Shown: positions 24,976 through 54,417, counted from the first letter of the stretch. The stretch: DNA of 64,000 nt from Candidatus Babeliales bacterium (GCA_963701665.1 OY969622.1:352001-416000), one strand, 5' to 3'. Program-made: numbers and translations. The notes: generated from the letters alone by a model not told the origin.

Positions 24976-25011
24976 AAATGCCCCAGGAAAAAATCCTGGG
25001 GCATTTTTTTT
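24976..25011 (+). terminator. Intrinsic terminator
   Basis: AAATGCCCCAGGA-AAAAA-TCCTGGGGCATTTTTTTT. Confidence 0.9.
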
Positions 25012-25343: not shown

Positions 25344-26057
25344 ATGGTAATGAAAAAATTTATTTTCATCTTATTTATTCTTATCTTCAATGGCAGTTTT
25401 GCAGAAACATATTACAGCCAAATTGGCCAAGATGAATTTATGCACAAAAATTTTTTTCTTGATAAAACTGATGGCACTTTTGTCGATATCGGTGCGGGTG
25501 GTGTTAAGTTTAGCGATTCATTATTCTTCGAGCGTCGAGGGTGGCGGTGCGTGTGCATTGAACCACATCCGCGCGCGTTCAATGAGCTCGTAACAACCCG
25601 CGCGTGTTTATGTATTCAAGCGTGCGTTTCAGATGTCGAGGGCGTTGCTAAATTTTTAGAAATTAGGGGCGCGTGCGAAATGTTAAGCGGGTTAATTGAT
25701 AAATATGACCCTCGCCATGTTAATCGTATTATTTTTGAAGTACAACAAAATCGCGATTCGTATCAAATAATTGATGTTCCCTGTGTCACATTGAATTCAG
25801 TGCTTGAAGAAGCTGGCATTTCACATATTGATATTCTCAAATTGGACACAGAAGGTGGAGAAAAAGATATCTTAAAATCCATTGATTTTGAGCGTTACAC
25901 TATTGACGTAATTTGTGTTGAAGATAATTATAAAGATCCTGAATTTTTCGAAATTCTTGAGCCTAAAGGATTTGTTTTAGTTAAAGCACTGCAATTTGAC
26001 CCGAATAGTACTGAGCGTGAACTTATTTTTAGAAATAAAAACTTTCTATCAAATTGA
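25344..26057 (+). CDS. FkbM family SAM-dependent methyltransferase with signal peptide
   Basis: YSQIGQD, FVDIGA, IEP and LKLDTEGGE motifs. Confidence 0.9.
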   Translation: MVMKKFIFILFILIFNGSFAETYYSQIGQDEFMHKNFFLDKTDGTFVDIGAGGVKFSDSLFFERRGWRCVCIEPHPRAFNELVTTRACLCIQACVSDVEGVAKFLEIRGACEMLSGLIDKYDPRHVNRIIFEVQQNRDSYQIIDVPCVTLNSVLEEAGISHIDILKLDTEGGEKDILKSIDFERYTIDVICVEDNYKDPEFFEILEPKGFVLVKALQFDPNSTERELIFRNKNFLSN

Positions 26058-26080
26058 TTGAAAAAATAAAAGGAGAGTCG

Positions 26081-26992
26081 ATGTTTAAAAAGATAGTATC
26101 AAGATCATGTATTACATTTTTTTTGATCTTTATGACAAGTTCACTGTTTGGGTTAGAGCTTGAGCCGATCCCCTATATTGACTTTGATATATCAATGCAA
26201 AGATATCGTTTTGAAGATTTTTTGAAAACAGATGAGCGCCATATAGCAGTTTATAATCTTTTTAAATCTCTGTATCAAATTACAAGTCCGCTTATTTTTA
26301 AGCCAGGAAATTATGTACGAATTCCAAAAAAACTTCATTTTATTTGGCTTGGAAGGCCGTTGCCAGAAGAATATAAAAAGTATATATATTCTTGGCAGGA
26401 ATTCCATCCAGATTGGGAATTTAAATTATGGACTGAAGCTGATCTGCCGACATTTAATTTTATCAATAGAGATATTTTTGATGAAGCAAATAATTATAGC
26501 CGAAAAGCAGACATTTGGTGTCTGGAAATTCTAGAACAATTTGGCGGTCTATATCTTAATATTGATTTTCAATGTCTCAAAAGAATGGATACGTTACACT
26601 ATACCTATGATTTTTATATTGCGATGCAGCCCCTGGATACGAATATTGTACAAATAGGTACAGGGTTGATTGCTGCAATACCTAATCATCCAATCATACG
26701 TTTCATGAGAGAACAGATACGTGAAACGAGACATATAAAACAAATTATTGTCGCAACAGGTCCTGTTTTTTTTACGAGAAAGTATGTTGAGTATTATGTT
26801 GCTTGTGGTGGCAAATGTCTTGAACGTAATGTGGTATTTCCAGCAAGTTATTTTTACCCGTGTGGGTATACACAACGGACACAACCACTTGAAGAATGGT
26901 ATAAAGATGAAGCTAAATTAGCATATGGCGTTCATTGGTGGGCAGGCAGCTGGCTCGGTAAAGAAGCCTTTGTTCCAGGAGCTTATCAATAA
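26081..26992 (+). CDS. GT32 (OCH1 / DXD sugar-binding) glycosyltransferase
   Basis: IPKKLHFIWLG, ADIW, GGLYLNID, TGP, HWWAGSW; AGGAG RBS before 26081. Confidence 0.85.
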   Translation: MFKKIVSRSCITFFLIFMTSSLFGLELEPIPYIDFDISMQRYRFEDFLKTDERHIAVYNLFKSLYQITSPLIFKPGNYVRIPKKLHFIWLGRPLPEEYKKYIYSWQEFHPDWEFKLWTEADLPTFNFINRDIFDEANNYSRKADIWCLEILEQFGGLYLNIDFQCLKRMDTLHYTYDFYIAMQPLDTNIVQIGTGLIAAIPNHPIIRFMREQIRETRHIKQIIVATGPVFFTRKYVEYYVACGGKCLERNVVFPASYFYPCGYTQRTQPLEEWYKDEAKLAYGVHWWAGSWLGKEAFVPGAYQ

Positions 26993-27047
26993 AATTGGAA
27001 TGAATTATATTCCTTTTACCGCATTAACATTGAAAGAAATATGAATC

Positions 27048-27944
27048 ATGAAGAAATTACAGAATCTGTTTATTATTACTCTATTGTGCGTTAGTAGCCA
27101 TGCTGCACAACATGATATTCCGACGGTTGATTTTAGAACTTCAATGAAAATTGATGCATATCCTAATATATTAAAAAATGAGTACTATAAAAAATTGTTC
27201 ACCTATTTAGAATTATTATATGGTTTGTTTGCACCTGAACATTGTATTCCTTTTGAAAAACCACTCATCCGTAATAAATTTCACTGGATTTGGCTAGGTG
27301 GACCGAATCCAGAACGGCATGAATTGCCTGAAAAGTATCGCGCGTATCAACAAACATGGTTAGATATGCATCCAGATTGGGAATTTTATGTTTGGACCGA
27401 AGCAGATATTGAAACATTTCGTTTTATTAATCGAAGCTTATTTGATAATGCGATGAATTACGGAGAGCAGTCTGATATTTGGCGCTATGAAATTTTATAT
27501 CAAGAAGGTGGTGTGTATCTTGATATTGATGAAGAGTGTTTAAAGAGGATCGATGACTTTAATCATATGTATCATTTTTATATTGGTATCCAACCTCTTG
27601 ATACCCATAATGTACAATTGGGTATTGGCATTATTGGTTCAATCGCGCGGCACCCGATTTTGAAGGAATGCATTGAGCAATTACCATTAACTCCAAAAAC
27701 AAAAAAGACTGTCGCTGTAACTGGGCCTATTTTCTTTACTAAAATATTTACAAGAAAAGCTGGTCAAACTGGTTTACGTGATATTGCACTTCCTCCTTCC
27801 TATTTTTATCCATGCGATTATGAACAAAAAGGTATGCCGAGCGAACTATGGTGTAAGCCAGAATCATATGCAGTGCATCATTGGGCCGGGAGTTGGCTTG
27901 CCCCAGAAGCTCTGTGTCCATTAGCAAGGAGAGAAGGATTGTGA
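27048..27944 (+). CDS. GT32 glycosyltransferase (paralog)
   Basis: HWIWLG, SDIWRYEILYQEGGVYLDID, TGP, HHWAGSW. Confidence 0.9.
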   Translation: MKKLQNLFIITLLCVSSHAAQHDIPTVDFRTSMKIDAYPNILKNEYYKKLFTYLELLYGLFAPEHCIPFEKPLIRNKFHWIWLGGPNPERHELPEKYRAYQQTWLDMHPDWEFYVWTEADIETFRFINRSLFDNAMNYGEQSDIWRYEILYQEGGVYLDIDEECLKRIDDFNHMYHFYIGIQPLDTHNVQLGIGIIGSIARHPILKECIEQLPLTPKTKKTVAVTGPIFFTKIFTRKAGQTGLRDIALPPSYFYPCDYEQKGMPSELWCKPESYAVHHWAGSWLAPEALCPLARREGL

Positions 27945-29602
27945 AAAAAATTTTCTTTAGTTTATTTTTATTTGCTCAATGTTTTTTACCCTCACTTCTA
28001 GCTCTTGAGGAACAAAAGATAGTAGTTGTTATACCTTCGTATAATAATAAGGAATGGGCAGAACGAAATATCGTATCATGTTTGTCTCAGAAGTATGACA
28101 ATTATACTGTTTTGTATTATGTCGACTGTTCCGATGACGGTTCGTATGAATGTATCCAAGAACTTTTGGCACTCTATGACACAGATCATCGTGTAACTCT
28201 CATTCATAATGATATCCGTAAAGGGGCTTTAGCAAATCATTGGGATGCTGTTCATCGCTGTGATGATACTACGATAATTGTACATTGCGATGGTGATGAT
28301 TGGTTGGCCCATAATGAAGTACTGCAACGTGTTAATGAGGTATATGCCGATCCTGAAGTATGGGTTACCTACGGACAATATAGAGAATATCCCGCAAATA
28401 CCCTTGGCCATTGTAGAAGTTTACCATCGCGGGTAATAGAGCAGAATATCTGGCGTTATCTATCATTACCATTACCCACAACGCACCTTAGAACATTTAG
28501 AGCATGTCTGTTTAAACAAATTTTGTTACAAGATCTCATTCACAATGGGACATTCTTGCCAACAGCGGGTGATATTGCCTTCTTCTGGCCGATTTTGGAG
28601 ATGGCAGGTAAACATGTCAGATTCATACATGAAGTTTTGTACGCTTATAATATTGATACTGATATTAATGATTTCAAAGTTCGCCTTGAACAACAACTTT
28701 TTTATTTCAATTTTTTACGCAAAAAAAAGTGCTACGAACCTTTAGCAGAGTTGCCACTAACAAAGAGTACGCAAAAAAATGCACAAGCAGATATTGTTAT
28801 CTTTTCATATAATCGTCCCTTGCAACTCTATGCTTTTTTAGAATCACTTTTTTATTACGTAAAAAATATTGGTACTGTAACGATACTCTGTCGCGCAGAT
28901 AATCAACAATATTCTGATGCCTATACTGAGGTTAGTAAAAACTTTCCTTCAGTTACGTTTGTTATGCAACCTGCACAATTTCCCCAACGTGATTTTAAGA
29001 AAAACCTCATGGATATCATTGAGAACAGTCCAAATGAATATATACTTTTTTCCGTTGATGATATTATTGTGAAAGATGTTTGTGATTTGCAAGAATGCAT
29101 CGATGCACTGCAAAAAACTCACGCCTACGGCTTCTATCTTCGTCTTGGTAAAAATATTACTCAGTGCTATATGCTGAGACGTTCCCATGTGCTTCCATTA
29201 CTCATGCCAATTTCTCAGAATATTTTTGCTTGGCAATTCAAGGATGGATCTTACGATTGGCGTTACCCAAACACTGTTGATATGACGGTATATAAAAAAG
29301 AAACCATTATCGATGCTTTGCGCAAGCTTGATTACACGAACCCAAGTAATCTTGAAGGAAATTGGTTTATTCCTGAATATGTTGACTACGAAAAGGTTGG
29401 TTTGTGTTACGAAACTTCAAAAATCGTCAATGTTCCTTTGAACGTTGTGCAAAAAGAACGCGCCAATGCGCACATGAATATTACGACGGAATATCTTTTA
29501 CAGCTCTTTAACGAGGGTCTAAAAATTGATATAACACCTTTGCATACGTTTGCTAATCAATCTCCTCACGCAGAATATAATTTCTCATTGATCGCTCGGT
29601 AA
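27941..29602 (+). CDS. Two-domain glycosyltransferase (GT2 plus a second GT-A-like domain)
   Basis: VVIPSYN, DCSDD, DGDD; second domain IIFSYNRP..VDD. The GTG start overlaps the upstream TGA. Confidence 0.85.
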   Translation: MKKIFFSLFLFAQCFLPSLLALEEQKIVVVIPSYNNKEWAERNIVSCLSQKYDNYTVLYYVDCSDDGSYECIQELLALYDTDHRVTLIHNDIRKGALANHWDAVHRCDDTTIIVHCDGDDWLAHNEVLQRVNEVYADPEVWVTYGQYREYPANTLGHCRSLPSRVIEQNIWRYLSLPLPTTHLRTFRACLFKQILLQDLIHNGTFLPTAGDIAFFWPILEMAGKHVRFIHEVLYAYNIDTDINDFKVRLEQQLFYFNFLRKKKCYEPLAELPLTKSTQKNAQADIVIFSYNRPLQLYAFLESLFYYVKNIGTVTILCRADNQQYSDAYTEVSKNFPSVTFVMQPAQFPQRDFKKNLMDIIENSPNEYILFSVDDIIVKDVCDLQECIDALQKTHAYGFYLRLGKNITQCYMLRRSHVLPLLMPISQNIFAWQFKDGSYDWRYPNTVDMTVYKKETIIDALRKLDYTNPSNLEGNWFIPEYVDYEKVGLCYETSKIVNVPLNVVQKERANAHMNITTEYLLQLFNEGLKIDITPLHTFANQSPHAEYNFSLIAR

Positions 29603-29610
29603 ATTTCATC

Positions 29611-30693
29611 ATGAAAAAATTATTATGGTTCAGCGTAGGTTTTGTAGGATTATTGCAAGCGGCAAGCATTCAGCTTGTGCCGCTTTCAGGGAGTAATAAT
29701 CCTGCTCACTTTTTTGATCGCAATGCACGCGATGATTGTATGAAAGCAGTATGTGATTTGAAAGTTGCTCTTTCCAAATTTGGCTATGAATTACAAGCAA
29801 CCACATTGGAGCAAGCATTTCAAAATAAAGATAAGACCATAGTTTTTGATGCGCCGTGTACTTTTAGTGAAGGCCATGATCCTTCAAACTGGTTTTTATT
29901 TTTATGGGAGCCGCCAACAGTTATCATGCAAACGTATAATCCTTATTATCATAGTTATTTTTCAAAAGTATTTACCTTATTTGACAAATTATACACATCA
30001 AACCAAGTTAAATTTTATTTTCCTCAGCCTTCGTTGAAAATGATTGAAGAGTTAGTCCCCTTTAAACAAAAAAAGTTATGTACTCTTATTGCTTGCAATA
30101 AGTGTTCTCCACATCCTTGGGAATTGTATTCTCATCGTGCAGGGGTGATTAGTTATTTTGAATCGAATGCACCGGAAGAATTTGATTTTTATGGTATTGG
30201 ATGGGATTCTCAAAAGTTTAAAACATACAAGGGCGCCGTTGATCATAAAGTTCCTTACTTAAAGAAATATAAGTTTTCTTTTTGTTACGAAAATATGCTC
30301 AACGATGCTGGCTACATTACGGAGAAAATTTTTGATTCATTTGTGGCAGGTTGTGTGCCCATTTATTTAGGAGCGGTGAATATTAGTTCATATATACCTG
30401 ATAATTGTTTCATAGCACGCGAGAAATTTTCTAGCCTATCTCAGCTCCATGATTTTTTGAAAAACATGACTGAGGAAGATTATAACACCTATCTAGAAAA
30501 TATTCGTATCTTTTTAAGCAGTAAAGAAGCGTTTCTTTTTTCCATTGAATTTTTTATTGATTTGGTGATCGAAATGCTTATTCCTGGCTATGATCAGTCA
30601 GTATTGTTTTCTCAAGAACAACGCGAAAAAATAAATCAAAGTAAAAAAATCTATGCAAAAAGGCATGACACCATTTCGGTGGCATGCCTTTAG
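29611..30693 (+). CDS. GT10 alpha-1,3-fucosyltransferase-like protein
   Basis: YKFSFCYEN..GYITEKIFDSFVAGCVPIYLG fucosyltransferase motif. Confidence 0.9.
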   Translation: MKKLLWFSVGFVGLLQAASIQLVPLSGSNNPAHFFDRNARDDCMKAVCDLKVALSKFGYELQATTLEQAFQNKDKTIVFDAPCTFSEGHDPSNWFLFLWEPPTVIMQTYNPYYHSYFSKVFTLFDKLYTSNQVKFYFPQPSLKMIEELVPFKQKKLCTLIACNKCSPHPWELYSHRAGVISYFESNAPEEFDFYGIGWDSQKFKTYKGAVDHKVPYLKKYKFSFCYENMLNDAGYITEKIFDSFVAGCVPIYLGAVNISSYIPDNCFIAREKFSSLSQLHDFLKNMTEEDYNTYLENIRIFLSSKEAFLFSIEFFIDLVIEMLIPGYDQSVLFSQEQREKINQSKKIYAKRHDTISVACL

Positions 30694-30695
30694 AT

Positions 30696-33600
30696 TTAAT
30701 CTTGTTGATGTTGCACTAAAACGCGTGTCCAAAGAATCATCATAAGTATGATTAAAATAATGCCTAAAATCCCGCCAATGCGTGCACCATAGTATGCATT
30801 AAAAATTGCTTCTTGCGCGGTTGTTAGTATAAAGTAACTGCCAATAACAACTGGTAAAAGAACTTTATCGAATCGCAGTAGTAAGTCGTACGCACAATAA
30901 AATAATCCACCTAAAATAGTTCCTGCTATGAGACACTTTAAGAGTGTCGTTGATTCAATAGAATGTCCCATAGAGAGAATGCCGAATGTTAGGGAAAGCC
31001 CAATGAATAAGATCTTATTTCTTTTCCACCCGTTCGTTAAAACATCACTTGCTAATACGAGTGTCATAAAAGCAGTGGCAGCTTCAATATATGATGTTAG
31101 CACACTGAGTGCAGCACTTAAAAAAGGCAGAAAGGCACTCGCTGCTGCAAAATCTGCAACGCGCGGAATCAAAGATGGACTAAAATACGCGCCGAGTGCC
31201 GATAAACTTGCGGGTATAACACCAATGCTCAATGCTGTAAGAACGCGTGTAACAAAATTATTCTTAAATTGTGGAGAAATAGTGCAAATGTCGACAATGG
31301 ATGCTACTAAGAGTGCAATAGCTGTTGATTGTGCGAGTGCAACGACAAACCATAAAAGAATAGTTTGCCAGAGTTGATGACTAAATGGCTCGATCGTTGT
31401 GAAATGTATAGCTAAGCTAGGCCACATATTTAAGACTTGGATGCCTGATTTGATAAAAAGAATGCCAAAGAATAGTAAAAACGTGCGCATCGAGAAATAA
31501 CGAAAGTTATTGTAAAATCCAAGTAAAACGAGTGCACCAATAAGAAGGAGCGCAAGTAAGAAGTCGCATACCATTTTGATGATAGCTTTCTGTGTTCTTT
31601 CTTCTGTGTATGAGCGTTTCCAAGTTTCTGGGACAAAAATAGAACGGTAGGCATCACTGATGGTGTTGCCCGCTAAACTGATGGTAATGCGTTGTTGCCC
31701 ACCTTCATGTAAATCAGCAATTAAAGGGACTTTAAAAATAAATGTCCAATCTGTTCTATGAGGAAGTTTTTTAGGTGAGGCTGAAATTTCAACCATATCT
31801 TTTGGATTGAGGGCAAATTCTTGCTGAAGAACTTCGTGAGCTTTTTTGCGAGCTTGTTGCAAGGTGAATGATGGCAGTGCTGCATCTTCTGCGAGGATAT
31901 GCCTTTTTTCAAGAGCTGCTTGATCATTGTGTACTATGATTTGATATTCTTCAGCGCGCTGCGTTACATCACCATTGAAATGCACAAGACGCACAAACCA
32001 AGCAAAAGGTTTTAAGTATGATAATTTTAAAAGATCACGGTATACATCTTTGCCACTCGTTTTCCATATAAAATGATGCTGCAGTTTTTGTTCCTCTTCT
32101 TGTTTCTCTAGTTTGTCCATACTTTGAGGGAATGCTTGCATGACGCTCGCCAGAGTTTGCCATGCGCTCGTTTTTTGTTTTGTCATTGCGTACGCTTGCT
32201 CAATTGCGCGTGCTCTTGTTAAAGCGAGTGGCAATCCATCAAATTCAAAACGTAACGTCGCACACCATGCAATGCATGCAATCAACCCTGCACAACAGAA
32301 AGCATAGAGAAAATTTTTATTGCTGGAAATAAAAGTTGTTGCATGGGTAATATTCTTTGCATGTGCGTGCGCTTTTTGAGGCGTAGGTTTCCATGCATCA
32401 TTATAACAAGAATCGGGTGCATTGGTGATTTTGTGTGCTGAAATGATGCGCCATAAGACGACCAAAATAGGAATAATGGCGCCAATAATAATAAGAACTT
32501 TACTGATAATAAGGGTAGGGGCCGATGCGATAAAAATTGGTAAAGAAAACCAAATCACATCGTATACATAATGAGAAACGATAGGCACAAGAAGGCCAAA
32601 TTTAAGATACAAAAATCCAAAAACAAATGAAGGTATAATAAGTTCAATAACACGAACATAGGCAGGTTGTGCCGGGTAGTTTGCATGAGCGGCACCAAAA
32701 ATGACTGCCTGAAGAATAAAGGCTCCAACCATCCACCATGTATGATTGCCATATTTTTTGCCTATAAGATGTGCACACGAAAGAGGTATTGCTCGAAAGA
32801 GGCATTCTTCAAGAAGTCCCGCGCTCAGTGAAAGAGCGAGTGGCGATAACCAGGGTAGATAATGGGCGAGAATGTTTGGATCATACAGTTGTTCTGCAGG
32901 AGACCACCAACCAAAATAGCGCAAGGCAAGATAATACAAGCCAATTGCAAAAGCAAAGTCAAAGCCTAAAATTAAATAACTTCCTATTGTTCGCCCAAGG
33001 ACTTGCCGTGAGTGTCCTGCGGTTGCGCCCCATATGCGCCAAAATTGTAAATGATGGCCGAACGCTTTGCGTGTCAAACTTTCTGCAGTCATGATGATTA
33101 ATGTGGCAAGACCGCTAAATACTACCATGATGACTAAAATACGTACGAAGATAAGAGAAAGAAAGCTATACCAAGAAAGTGAAGTAGGGTAGAATTTCAT
33201 CAAAAGTGGTAATTCATTTACCATGACTGCACCTTGCAAAATGCCGATGAAGCTACCAAGAATCAATGGCATTTTCCAAAGAATGATACGTTGTCGCAAA
33301 AGAAAGAATAATGCAACTAATCCACCAAGTGCATAGAGAAATAGTGCCGCTATTAAGGCGATAAATGCGATAATATTGTTATCTGAGCGCATTTCTTTAT
33401 AACGACGTATAAAAGCATCGGGAACTTTCAAAGAACGTTCTAATTTTGTGAATCTATCACCACTAACAACCAGTTGTAATCTATAGGGTGCTTCACCGAC
33501 TTTTTTATCATTGCGCTCGTAAACGAAGGTATGATCGATGCGCCCGTTCGGACGAACTTCTTGCGAGGTTTCAGCTTCTATATAATGAGTAAAATTGATA

Positions 33601-34097
33601 TGCCACTCGTTTGTTGCGTGTGCCAAAGCTATTGCGCGCGCTTGATCTGGCGCGAGTGCTGGACCTTGTTGATCTTCTGCAATTATTTCAACAAATCCAT
33701 ACGGTTTTCCAAGAGGGGTAAATTTGATTGTCGCTTCATTAACTTCATGTTCTTTGAAATGGCGCACTGACCATGTATAAGGCGAATAATCAGCATCATG
33801 AAGCATTTCTTTAAATTTTGCCAATCCGCCGCCTTCAAGTTCGATGAAATTTTTTGTTTGAGAATCAACATCAAAAGAAGCCGCTCGTTTATAGGCGTCT
33901 GGGCCCCAATGATTGCGGAGCATGAGATCTTGAGCGGTACTTAATGCATGCTGACGATCCATGGTAATTTTGAGATCAATAATAGGGAATGCCTTAGAAA
34001 AATAGTTGAATGAAAACCAACAACCGCCTGCAAATATTAAGAAAAAAAGTATCCAGAAGATTGGTTTTTTTGTCAATCCTTGAAAGTGATACATCAT
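30696..34097 (-). CDS. Large CPBP (Abi / type II CAAX protease) family intramembrane metalloprotease
   Basis: EECLFR, FGAAH and HYVYD motifs; many TM segments; duplicated extracytoplasmic domain. Confidence 0.85.
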   Translation of the reverse strand: MMYHFQGLTKKPIFWILFFLIFAGGCWFSFNYFSKAFPIIDLKITMDRQHALSTAQDLMLRNHWGPDAYKRAASFDVDSQTKNFIELEGGGLAKFKEMLHDADYSPYTWSVRHFKEHEVNEATIKFTPLGKPYGFVEIIAEDQQGPALAPDQARAIALAHATNEWHINFTHYIEAETSQEVRPNGRIDHTFVYERNDKKVGEAPYRLQLVVSGDRFTKLERSLKVPDAFIRRYKEMRSDNNIIAFIALIAALFLYALGGLVALFFLLRQRIILWKMPLILGSFIGILQGAVMVNELPLLMKFYPTSLSWYSFLSLIFVRILVIMVVFSGLATLIIMTAESLTRKAFGHHLQFWRIWGATAGHSRQVLGRTIGSYLILGFDFAFAIGLYYLALRYFGWWSPAEQLYDPNILAHYLPWLSPLALSLSAGLLEECLFRAIPLSCAHLIGKKYGNHTWWMVGAFILQAVIFGAAHANYPAQPAYVRVIELIIPSFVFGFLYLKFGLLVPIVSHYVYDVIWFSLPIFIASAPTLIISKVLIIIGAIIPILVVLWRIISAHKITNAPDSCYNDAWKPTPQKAHAHAKNITHATTFISSNKNFLYAFCCAGLIACIAWCATLRFEFDGLPLALTRARAIEQAYAMTKQKTSAWQTLASVMQAFPQSMDKLEKQEEEQKLQHHFIWKTSGKDVYRDLLKLSYLKPFAWFVRLVHFNGDVTQRAEEYQIIVHNDQAALEKRHILAEDAALPSFTLQQARKKAHEVLQQEFALNPKDMVEISASPKKLPHRTDWTFIFKVPLIADLHEGGQQRITISLAGNTISDAYRSIFVPETWKRSYTEERTQKAIIKMVCDFLLALLLIGALVLLGFYNNFRYFSMRTFLLFFGILFIKSGIQVLNMWPSLAIHFTTIEPFSHQLWQTILLWFVVALAQSTAIALLVASIVDICTISPQFKNNFVTRVLTALSIGVIPASLSALGAYFSPSLIPRVADFAAASAFLPFLSAALSVLTSYIEAATAFMTLVLASDVLTNGWKRNKILFIGLSLTFGILSMGHSIESTTLLKCLIAGTILGGLFYCAYDLLLRFDKVLLPVVIGSYFILTTAQEAIFNAYYGARIGGILGIILIILMMILWTRVLVQHQQD

Positions 34098-45907: not shown

Positions 45908-45993
45908 CTCAGAAACAGTAAGGACAGAGTAATTTAGTCGGGTTGATCGATGGGTTTGAAAAAGCGATTTTTGATATAGGGAGGAACAGTTTA

Positions 45994-54417
<8,424 letters not shown>

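Follow-up and report, generated by a model that had tools for sequence, protein, structure and literature searches.

Why would a bacterium put export signals on the enzymes that assemble its glycans? Bacterial glycan chains are normally built in the cytoplasm, and the periplasm holds no nucleotide-sugar donors. The question is raised by five open reading frames (ORFs) on the plus strand of a 64,000-nucleotide stretch of Candidatus Babeliales bacterium DNA (GCA_963701665.1, OY969622.1:352001-416000; hereafter the window, C1:352001-416000 in our numbering), which lies on a single 1.337-Mb contig (G+C 37%, completeness 93.6%; genome label G000). At window positions 25344..30693, they encode an FkbM methyltransferase, two glycosyltransferases of family GT32 (GT32a and GT32b), a tandem GT-A enzyme of family GT2 and a GT10 enzyme, each with a predicted Sec-type leader. 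A first-pass annotation had listed these ORFs with their families and N-termini, all of which are present at this place and on this strand, and had read them as an exported, Golgi-like glycosylation line that uses host nucleotide sugars.

The account that we prefer, with about an even chance of being right, is that the five enzymes would reside in the cell envelope and build a glycan of the bacterium itself from donors that are partly host-derived. That the enzymes are exported in some form is the best reading and a probable one, when this account is summed with two exported variants considered below. We hold to this case because the leaders are conserved among homologues, because split GT2 halves each carry one while fused enzymes carry a single one, and because leaders are found on ManC, Gmd and Fcl of relatives, which make sugar donors, and on one Gmd of G000. 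The five genes and their predicted leaders are as follows (window positions).

25344..26057 (+): FkbM-family S-adenosylmethionine (SAM)-dependent methyltransferase, predicted 18-aa leader from the ATG at 25350; PF05050 and TIGR01444 above cut-off
25350..25403 (+): predicted Sec/signal peptidase I leader of FkbM, ending S-F-A (from sequence and heuristic)
26081..26992 (+): GT32a, Och1-like glycosyltransferase, predicted 24-aa leader; PF04488 above cut-off
26081..26152 (+): predicted leader of GT32a, ending L-F-G
27048..27944 (+): GT32b, Och1-like GT-A glycosyltransferase with DxD, predicted 19-aa leader; PF04488
27048..27104 (+): predicted leader of GT32b, ending S-H-A
27941..29602 (+): two-domain glycosyltransferase with a GTG start and predicted 21-aa leader; GT2 N-domain and second predicted GT-A-like domain
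27941..28003 (+): predicted leader of GT2, ending L-L-A
29611..30693 (+): GT10 (alpha-1,3/4-fucosyltransferase family), predicted 17-aa leader (weakest in the cluster)
29611..29661 (+): predicted leader of GT10, ending L-Q-A; best 8-residue hydropathy 2.15

Predicted leaders in the cluster and among its relatives

Leaders were called with a crude heuristic of our own writing, which asks for a basic N-terminal end, an uncharged stretch of at least 10 residues and a hydropathy threshold, and which permits alternative starts within 45 codons. It passes four of the five cluster proteins at a threshold of 2.2 and GT10 (2.15) at 2.1. It fires at 20 of 3159 internal Met positions and on 0 of the 15 NCBIfam-named housekeeping proteins of the window, although some Rossmann first strands give false calls (three Gmd rows). 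All five N-termini have a basic n-region and a short uncharged h-region without a twin-arginine motif or lipobox; by the rule of small residues at -3 and -1, position -3 is Leu in three of the five, and GT10 is marginal. Their cores are short (best 19-residue hydropathy of 1.1-2.1), the -1 residue is small and the mature starts are neutral or acidic; the five leaders look cleavable and, within their clade, look oriented N-in/C-out. Two signal peptidase I genes (PF10502) and two secretin genes are present in G000, while TatC is found in none of 11 genomes.

Leaders are, however, abundant throughout this genome, where they occur on 535 of 1200 ORFs (45%), 448 of these without a further transmembrane segment; a rate of 44% has been reported for Chromulinavorax (PMC6561590; here and below, PMC identifiers stand for the accessible part of each paper). 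A run of five has a probability of ~0.007-0.018 per position, which is not unusual in a genome with 14 leader-bearing runs of at least four, and we therefore rejected the run as proof. Because about 45% of ORFs carry leaders, it is conservation at the level of families, not the run of five, that exceeds chance. The framing of the trait as a property of this operon, as first proposed, gives way to one that is genome- and order-wide.

This conservation is extensive. Among the best 120 homologues of 393 for GT32b, of 357 for GT2 and of 208 for FkbM, with the query counted in each set, the leader passes in 95, 95 and 91 sequences, respectively, and a hydrophobic N-terminal end is present in 106, 111 and 107. 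It is the position of the leader that is kept and not its sequence, and leaders are retained in homologues down to ~40% identity. For GT10, 14 of 20 Babeliales loci pass with a clear start, and in a further one the locus edge leaves the start open; hydrophobic leaders that lack a basic residue account for two of the five misses. The operon of a same-genus genome (G001) comprises four genes, FkbM-GT32b-GT2-GT10, all leader-bearing and without GT32a. By comparison, none of seven homologues from plasmids of free-living bacteria carries a leader (5 of the 15 listed GT32 matches and 2 of the 15 listed FkbM matches, an eighth, which was cut off, having been dropped from this control set), nor do one GT10 and one Gmd from Verrucomicrobiales. 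Leaderless members also occur in G000 itself, namely the other four above-cut-off GT2 genes and one of three FkbM genes.

Rearranged genes carry leaders in a telling pattern. Where the two GT2 domains are encoded as separate genes (G054, G101), each half has its own leader, whereas the fusions GT2-Gmd (G057) and Gmd-Fcl (G054) have one N-terminal leader each. We take this arrangement as the strongest sign that the leaders are under selection. Two stretches, 10073-12091 of L099 (G057:C2) and 8371-11715 of L100 (G054:C3), hold the leader-GT2-Gmd and leader-Gmd-Fcl fusions together with a leader-bearing ManC, and each fusion is seen in one assembly only.

Leaders also extend to donor-making enzymes. 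G000 carries a leader-bearing second Gmd that is 75% identical to its leaderless copy, retains the STSE and YxxxK motifs and lacks a Met where the old start would be. In Babeliales, 11 of 32 Gmd sequences are leader-bearing (sampled from the 30 best loci; 70 of 151 genomes lie above the Gmd cut-off), and 3 of the 11 retain the old-start Met. We do not claim repeated leader gain in Gmd: the tree has four label changes (bootstrap 3-5), and its well-supported branches are compatible with a single origin. In other relatives, ManC (G054, G028), Fcl (G094), and GalE-like and RmlD-like proteins (G057) are leader-bearing.

The remainder of the leader-bearing set in G000 includes three STELLO, three RXYLT1-like and three Pfam-supported sulfotransferase proteins as well as further methyltransferases. 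Of the 361 leader-bearing soluble ORFs of at least 150 aa, 347 went through one Pfam scan (12 others were scanned separately and two of more than 2000 aa were omitted). It returns envelope proteins and ankyrin, WD40 and DnaJ proteins, together with glutamine synthetase, two thioredoxin reductase fusions, a cyclopropane synthase and a radical SAM enzyme; no ribosomal, transfer-RNA synthetase or polymerase family is found among the 347. The glutamine synthetase and the two thioredoxin reductase-thioredoxin fusions (C1:43037-44431; C1:684526-687747) bear leaders or anchors despite their need for ATP or NADPH. A second glycan region (G000:C1:1118000-1150000; L024, L025) mixes leaderless genes (asparagine-synthase-like, GT4, a Wzx-GT4 fusion, GtrB-like GT2s and multi-transmembrane proteins without a Pfam match) with leader-bearing ones (Gmd, three STELLO, a sulfotransferase, three RXYLT1-like, two of which are fused to Methyltransf_24, and FkbM).

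Where homologues of the cluster carry a name, it is Candidatus Babeliales or Dependentiae, which agrees with the lineage guessed in the first-pass annotation, and the presence of four TLC nucleotide carriers in G000 is consistent with this intracellular lineage. Their distribution among genomes is patchy (GT32b in 12/41, GT10 in 16/61 and GT2 in 83/151), and this patchiness, together with the reshuffled gene sets, resembles that of variable surface-glycan loci. In one relative, a 50-kb island (G020:C1:338000-392000; L034-L036) holds nine GT32 and at least nine GT2 copies, many of them leader-bearing.

Donor supply and site of action

Where would exported enzymes find their substrates? MetK was detected in 4 of 41 genomes, G000 not among them, and APS (adenosine 5'-phosphosulfate) kinase is likewise not found in G000, so that SAM and 3'-phosphoadenosine-5'-phosphosulfate (PAPS) are likely to be host-derived. 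APS-kinase matches in 24 other genomes are short P-loop matches, except in G037, and were not counted as enzymes, while PF01747 matches in 0 of 11 genomes and gives no match in Escherichia coli either, so CysDN-type sulfurylases may still be present. Host sugars are plausible as well, and the leader-bearing Gmd, ManC and Fcl argue for a pool of donors outside the cytoplasm. Host nucleotide sugars as a requirement, on the other hand, did not survive the pathway check that the first-pass annotation itself proposed, as a leaderless manC-gmd-fcl set is present in G000. Its remark that no flippase, polymerase or nucleotide-sugar gene is adjacent holds for the immediate neighbours and fails for the genome and its relatives: the Wzx-GT4 fusion in G000 shows that a conventional, predicted cytoplasmic glycan route is also present, leaderless wecB/wecC-like genes occur in G000 (such "-like" names being our reading of the families), and in other families leader-bearing GT32/GT2 genes come straight after manC-gmd-fcl. 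Operons of two relatives (G032, G094) also carry a DPM-like GT2 and a PMT-family GT-C.

In the proposed mechanism, the five proteins would cross the inner membrane unfolded through Sec and lose their leaders to signal peptidase I. The tandem GT-A enzyme would then extend a backbone, the two Och1-like GT32s would add alpha-linked hexoses, GT10 would add fucose and FkbM would O-methylate, with the periplasm or the cell surface as the most likely site. Donors would enter from the host cytosol through an outer membrane without lipopolysaccharide (LPS) and, if the cell sits in a vacuole, also by way of host transporters, along the same road as imported ATP and SAM; leader-bearing Gmd, with ManC and Fcl in relatives, would convert sugar donors locally. 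Babela grows in vacuoles (PMC4378268) and Chromulinavorax in the host cytoplasm (PMC6561590). LpxC is not found in G000, and a loss of LPS genes together with two gspD copies has been described for Babeliales (PMC4776705); the product would likely replace the missing O-antigen as a variable coat. In two relatives, the PMT-like GT-C and DPM-like GT2 of the same operon would provide the primer.

Several observations weigh against this account. With ~45% of ORFs leader-bearing, tagging may be easy to gain, and the charge bias of GT2 homologues is divided (45 vs 40). G000 encodes leaderless ManC, Gmd, Fcl, GalE-like, GalU-like and GlmU-like proteins and two phosphohexomutases, and since the sole Fcl found there is leaderless, the cell cannot by itself complete GDP-fucose outside. 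In four relatives (G014, G020, G032, G037), a leader-bearing GT32 lies directly behind a leaderless fcl, which points to a bacterial source of donors; this would need an exporter, of which none was found (PF04142, 0/1). The PMT-like primer was not found in G000 with two queries. Enzymes that use NAD(P) or FAD and travel by Sec without the twin-arginine (Tat) route must refold and reload their cofactor outside, and the junction rule by which we assign destinations below is itself unproven as a marker of host delivery.

The leaderless pathway genes lead directly to the first alternative, in which export and envelope site are the same and the donors are made in the cytoplasm and pumped out by an unrecognised exporter, as in a self-supplied analogue of the Golgi. 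Eukaryotic nucleotide-sugar transporters belong to the drug/metabolite transporter (DMT) superfamily, and G000 has three EamA genes that could be candidates for this role. Together with the leaderless manC-gmd-fcl, GalU-, GlmU- and GalE-like genes and the fcl-GT32 gene order of the four relatives, they speak for this idea. None of the three, however, lies near a glycan cluster, and no match to the nucleotide-sugar transporter profile PF04142 is found in G000, the one such family searched. SAM and PAPS synthesis were also not found, and one DMT member in Chlamydia is an importer of SAM (PMC3104491). Leader-bearing ManC, Gmd and Fcl, as seen in relatives, would serve no purpose if finished donors were exported, and we think this alternative unlikely.

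A second alternative keeps export and changes the destination, such that the enzymes would be effectors secreted by the type II system to the vacuole membrane or host cytosol, where they would modify host molecules with host donors. The two secretin genes fit this route, the type II system being the sole secretion system reported for Babela (PMC4378268), as do the structural similarity of GT32b to SetA, YeGT and PaTox (TM-score 0.40-0.49) and the supply of GDP-mannose, NADPH, SAM and PAPS in host cytosol, which would suit leader-bearing Gmd, Fcl and sulfotransferases. The leaders themselves point elsewhere. With classes assigned from Pfam, a Met-first junction, defined as small residue-Met-polar after the leader, is common in host-type proteins (ankyrin, WD40 and DnaJ-type; 31 of 47) and rare or absent in envelope proteins (1 of 30), cofactor enzymes (0 of 9) and glycan enzymes (2 of 18, apparently spurious in both cases; Fisher p 7.5e-5). 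None of the five window proteins has it at the leader end. If this junction marks host delivery, the glycan enzymes would belong with the envelope. They also form a multi-step set in operons with wecB/wecC-, DPM- and PMT-like genes rather than single-domain effectors, and the best structural match, Och1, is a chain-extending enzyme. An effector role is thus improbable to a similar degree, and host proteins as targets, one of the options first suggested, are disfavoured.

In a third alternative, the leaders would be uncleaved anchors that hold a cytoplasmic catalytic domain, and glycan synthesis would be ordinary and merely tethered to the inner membrane. All sugar donors could then arise in the cytoplasm, the Wzx-like flippase fused to GT4 elsewhere in G000 would fit, and the 3 of 11 leader-bearing Gmd that keep the old-start Met would permit a cytoplasmic form. 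In 40 of 95 GT2 homologues, the charge is more positive after the hydrophobic stretch. The charge is, however, more positive before the core in 76/95 GT32b (7 reversed) and 71/91 FkbM homologues (7 reversed). In 100 aligned GT2 rows, all 30 lysine-rich stems fall within one 59-row clade, which holds Rhabdochlamydiaceae- and "Verrucomicrobia"-named members, and none are in the other 41 rows, which hold the query; such "Verrucomicrobia" labels often mean Chlamydiae. The basic ends, short cores, small -1 residues and neutral or acidic mature starts of the five leaders, as well as their likeness to those of secretin, Omp85, Skp and peptidyl-prolyl isomerases, also speak against the anchor reading, which we doubt about as much as the two before it.

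That the leaders are neutral by-products of a signal-peptide-flooded genome, with exported copies that idle, is very unlikely: the 535 leader-bearing ORFs, an odd SAM loop in FkbM (1/120) and a variant motif in GT32a would fit, but a leader is seen on 0 of 15 housekeeping proteins, no ribosomal, transfer-RNA synthetase or polymerase family turns up among the 347 leader-bearing ORFs scanned, the leaders persist to ~40% identity and reappear on each part of split genes, and the catalytic motifs are kept.

Comparison with known systems

The nearest tested precedent for envelope-resident glycan enzymes fed in part by the host is, by analogy, glycogen synthesis in the chlamydial inclusion, with another secretion route and another product. 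Chlamydia trachomatis secretes its glycogen enzymes into the inclusion lumen, where host UDP-glucose arrives by way of SLC35D2, and in this obligate intracellular bacterium, too, normally cytoplasmic nucleotide-sugar enzymes work outside the cell on a host donor (PMC4829429). These enzymes carry type III signals and no Sec signal peptide by that paper's SignalP test, and their product is a storage glucan (PMC4829429). In place of type III signals and GT5, the cluster presents Sec-like leaders on a GT32/GT2/GT10/FkbM set, with STELLO, RXYLT1-like and sulfotransferase proteins elsewhere and leaders on donor-making enzymes, all known here from sequence alone.

The likeness to the eukaryotic Golgi lies in shared families (Och1 9n3s, GT10, STELLO, RXYLT1), predicted trans-side catalysis and the logic of an assembly line, as well as in the PMT-like/DPM-like priming pair of the relatives' operons. 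As the first-pass annotation had anticipated from its eukaryotic counterparts, GT32b has fungal Golgi Och1 as its best structural match. Unlike Golgi enzymes, the cluster proteins have short, cleavable-looking leaders in place of type II anchors, and their named homologues are from Babeliales and Chlamydiae. Longer, anchor-like leaders are seen in 52/95 GT32b and 42/95 GT2 homologues. No nucleotide-sugar transporter was found with PF04142, the one family searched, and the three EamA genes may be candidates. ManC, Gmd and Fcl, which Golgi systems keep in the cytosol, are leader-bearing in several Babeliales.

O-antigen and capsule loci share the variable GT2/GT32/GT10/FkbM operon, often beside manC-gmd-fcl. 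Their transferases are cytoplasmic and leaderless (0/7 controls), whereas here leaders are present, no export genes of the Wzx/Wzy or ABC type are adjacent and LpxC is not found. Effector glycosyltransferases (SetA, YeGT, PaTox, TcdA/B) share a related GT-A fold, a weak PF12919 match and the use of host donors; the differences lie in a size of only ~300 aa, the lack of delivery or translocation domains and of an effector-type junction, and an operonic association with chain-building enzymes. The Dependentiae secretome has a similar leader rate (45% vs 44% in Chromulinavorax), Sec and type II secretion, and ankyrin proteins (PMC6561590, PMC4378268). The accessible parts of these papers treat ankyrins, proteases and nucleases, whereas the glycan enzymes fall in the envelope-like leader class by our own classification.

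We found no description of Sec-tagged glycan pathways in Dependentiae, although entries for such proteins may exist in the supplementary tables of PMC4378268 or PMC6561590; "glycosyl" is absent from the accessible text of PMC6561590 and "glyco" from that of PMC12172432. We tentatively propose, as an idea that may well be wrong, that an entire glycan factory has been relocated outside the cytoplasm in Babeliales and, in parallel, in environmental Chlamydiae. Sec-exported ManC, Gmd, Fcl, Och1-like, STELLO and RXYLT1-like enzymes and fucosyl-, methyl- and sulfotransferases would work in a periplasm into which the host's GTP, NADPH, SAM, PAPS and nucleotide sugars flood. This Golgi-like compartment would lack its own transporters and would also house active glutamine synthetase and thioredoxin reductases, and a sulfated, methylated, fucosylated, eukaryote-like coat would replace LPS. 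If the leaders work, widespread protist parasites would run chemistry that depends on nucleotide sugars, SAM, PAPS and NADPH outside the cytoplasm. This would show the possible cover of LPS-less Babeliales cells, give a function to part of a very large secretome and provide a bacterial parallel to lumenal glycosylation.

The individual enzymes and their surroundings

The family assignments rest on Pfam matches to PF05050 (E 5e-18), PF04488 (E 4e-10 and 2e-15), PF00535 (E 3e-19) and PF00852 (E 1e-14). Starts are at ATG 25344/25350, ATG 26081, ATG 27048, GTG 27941 and ATG 29611, and the intergenic gaps are 23, 55, -4 and 8 nt, with the GTG overlapping the GT32b stop by 4 nt. The SAM-binding loop of FkbM (window 25490-25520) is one residue, or one codon, shorter than in homologues, a variant seen in 1 of 120 sequences, the query itself; the 235-aa FkbM cluster is recorded also on a separate 7-kb contig. 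In GT32a, the motif is NxD where most relatives have DxD (NxD in 3 of 120 homologues, including P0052 and P0117), and by its profile GT32a is a GT32 family member with a variant site in place of the canonical DxD. Further along the window, rpoB and rpoC are each split into several ORFs (45943-54417). This breakage suggests indel errors in the assembly, and single-residue oddities are therefore to be read with caution.

GT32b combines PF04488 above cut-off with a GT-A fold and DxD, as expected of an Och1-like GT32. Its AlphaFold model has a predicted local distance difference test (pLDDT) score of 91, with the leader as a separate helix of lower confidence outside the fold; the top Foldseek match is fungal Och1 (9n3s, TM-score ~0.5), followed by the effector glycosyltransferases at 0.40-0.49. 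The GT2 model (pLDDT 95) shows two alpha/beta domains, again with a separate leader helix of lower confidence outside the fold, and PF00535 covers residues 49-212 of the longer ORF. Heparosan synthase 2 and the chondroitin polymerase K4CP are its top matches and share the tandem GT-A architecture, whereas at a whole-chain TM-score of ~0.3 (root-mean-square deviation 16-21 A) we rejected membership of the two-domain glycosaminoglycan polymerases (K4CP, PmHS2) and describe the protein as a tandem GT-A enzyme. An Atlas search with its C-domain led for the most part to unnamed clusters rich in phage, besides a single partial GT2 cluster, which is a lead only, and viral contigs searched with the GT2 query gave no relatives. 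For GT10, the PF00852 score of 54.8 bits (cut-off 23.9) places the protein in its family, from which a fucosyltransferase role is predicted; the nearest Atlas clusters are GT10, with Chlamydiota as the commonest phylum, and a scan of genome contigs gave a single locus, in Verrucomicrobiales.

The cluster lies 3' of a ribosomal RNA operon and is preceded by a hairpin and a 77-aa ORF.

24976..25006 (no strand): 13-bp hairpin with T tails on both strands, by consensus match

This hairpin is likely, from its sequence, a terminator that parts an upstream leader-bearing ORF from the cluster. A promoter scan was uninformative, with 33 sites vs 25.5 +/- 4.7 in shuffles. At the other end, a 1133-aa multi-transmembrane protein (window 30696-34097, minus strand) meets GT10 head-on and is a neighbour in G001 too. 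It has no Pfam or NCBIfam match, and its EE..R...H pattern is presumably reminiscent of CPBP intramembrane proteases.

Elsewhere in G000, a leader-bearing DOT1-family methyltransferase (C1:722835-723494; L142:10598-11254) and a leader-bearing MavL-like macrodomain protein (C1:338752-340248) are candidate host-directed enzymes, and four tandem leader-bearing proteins of ~1550 aa (G000:C1:824470-843343; L146, L147) have weak Pfam matches of a low-complexity type.

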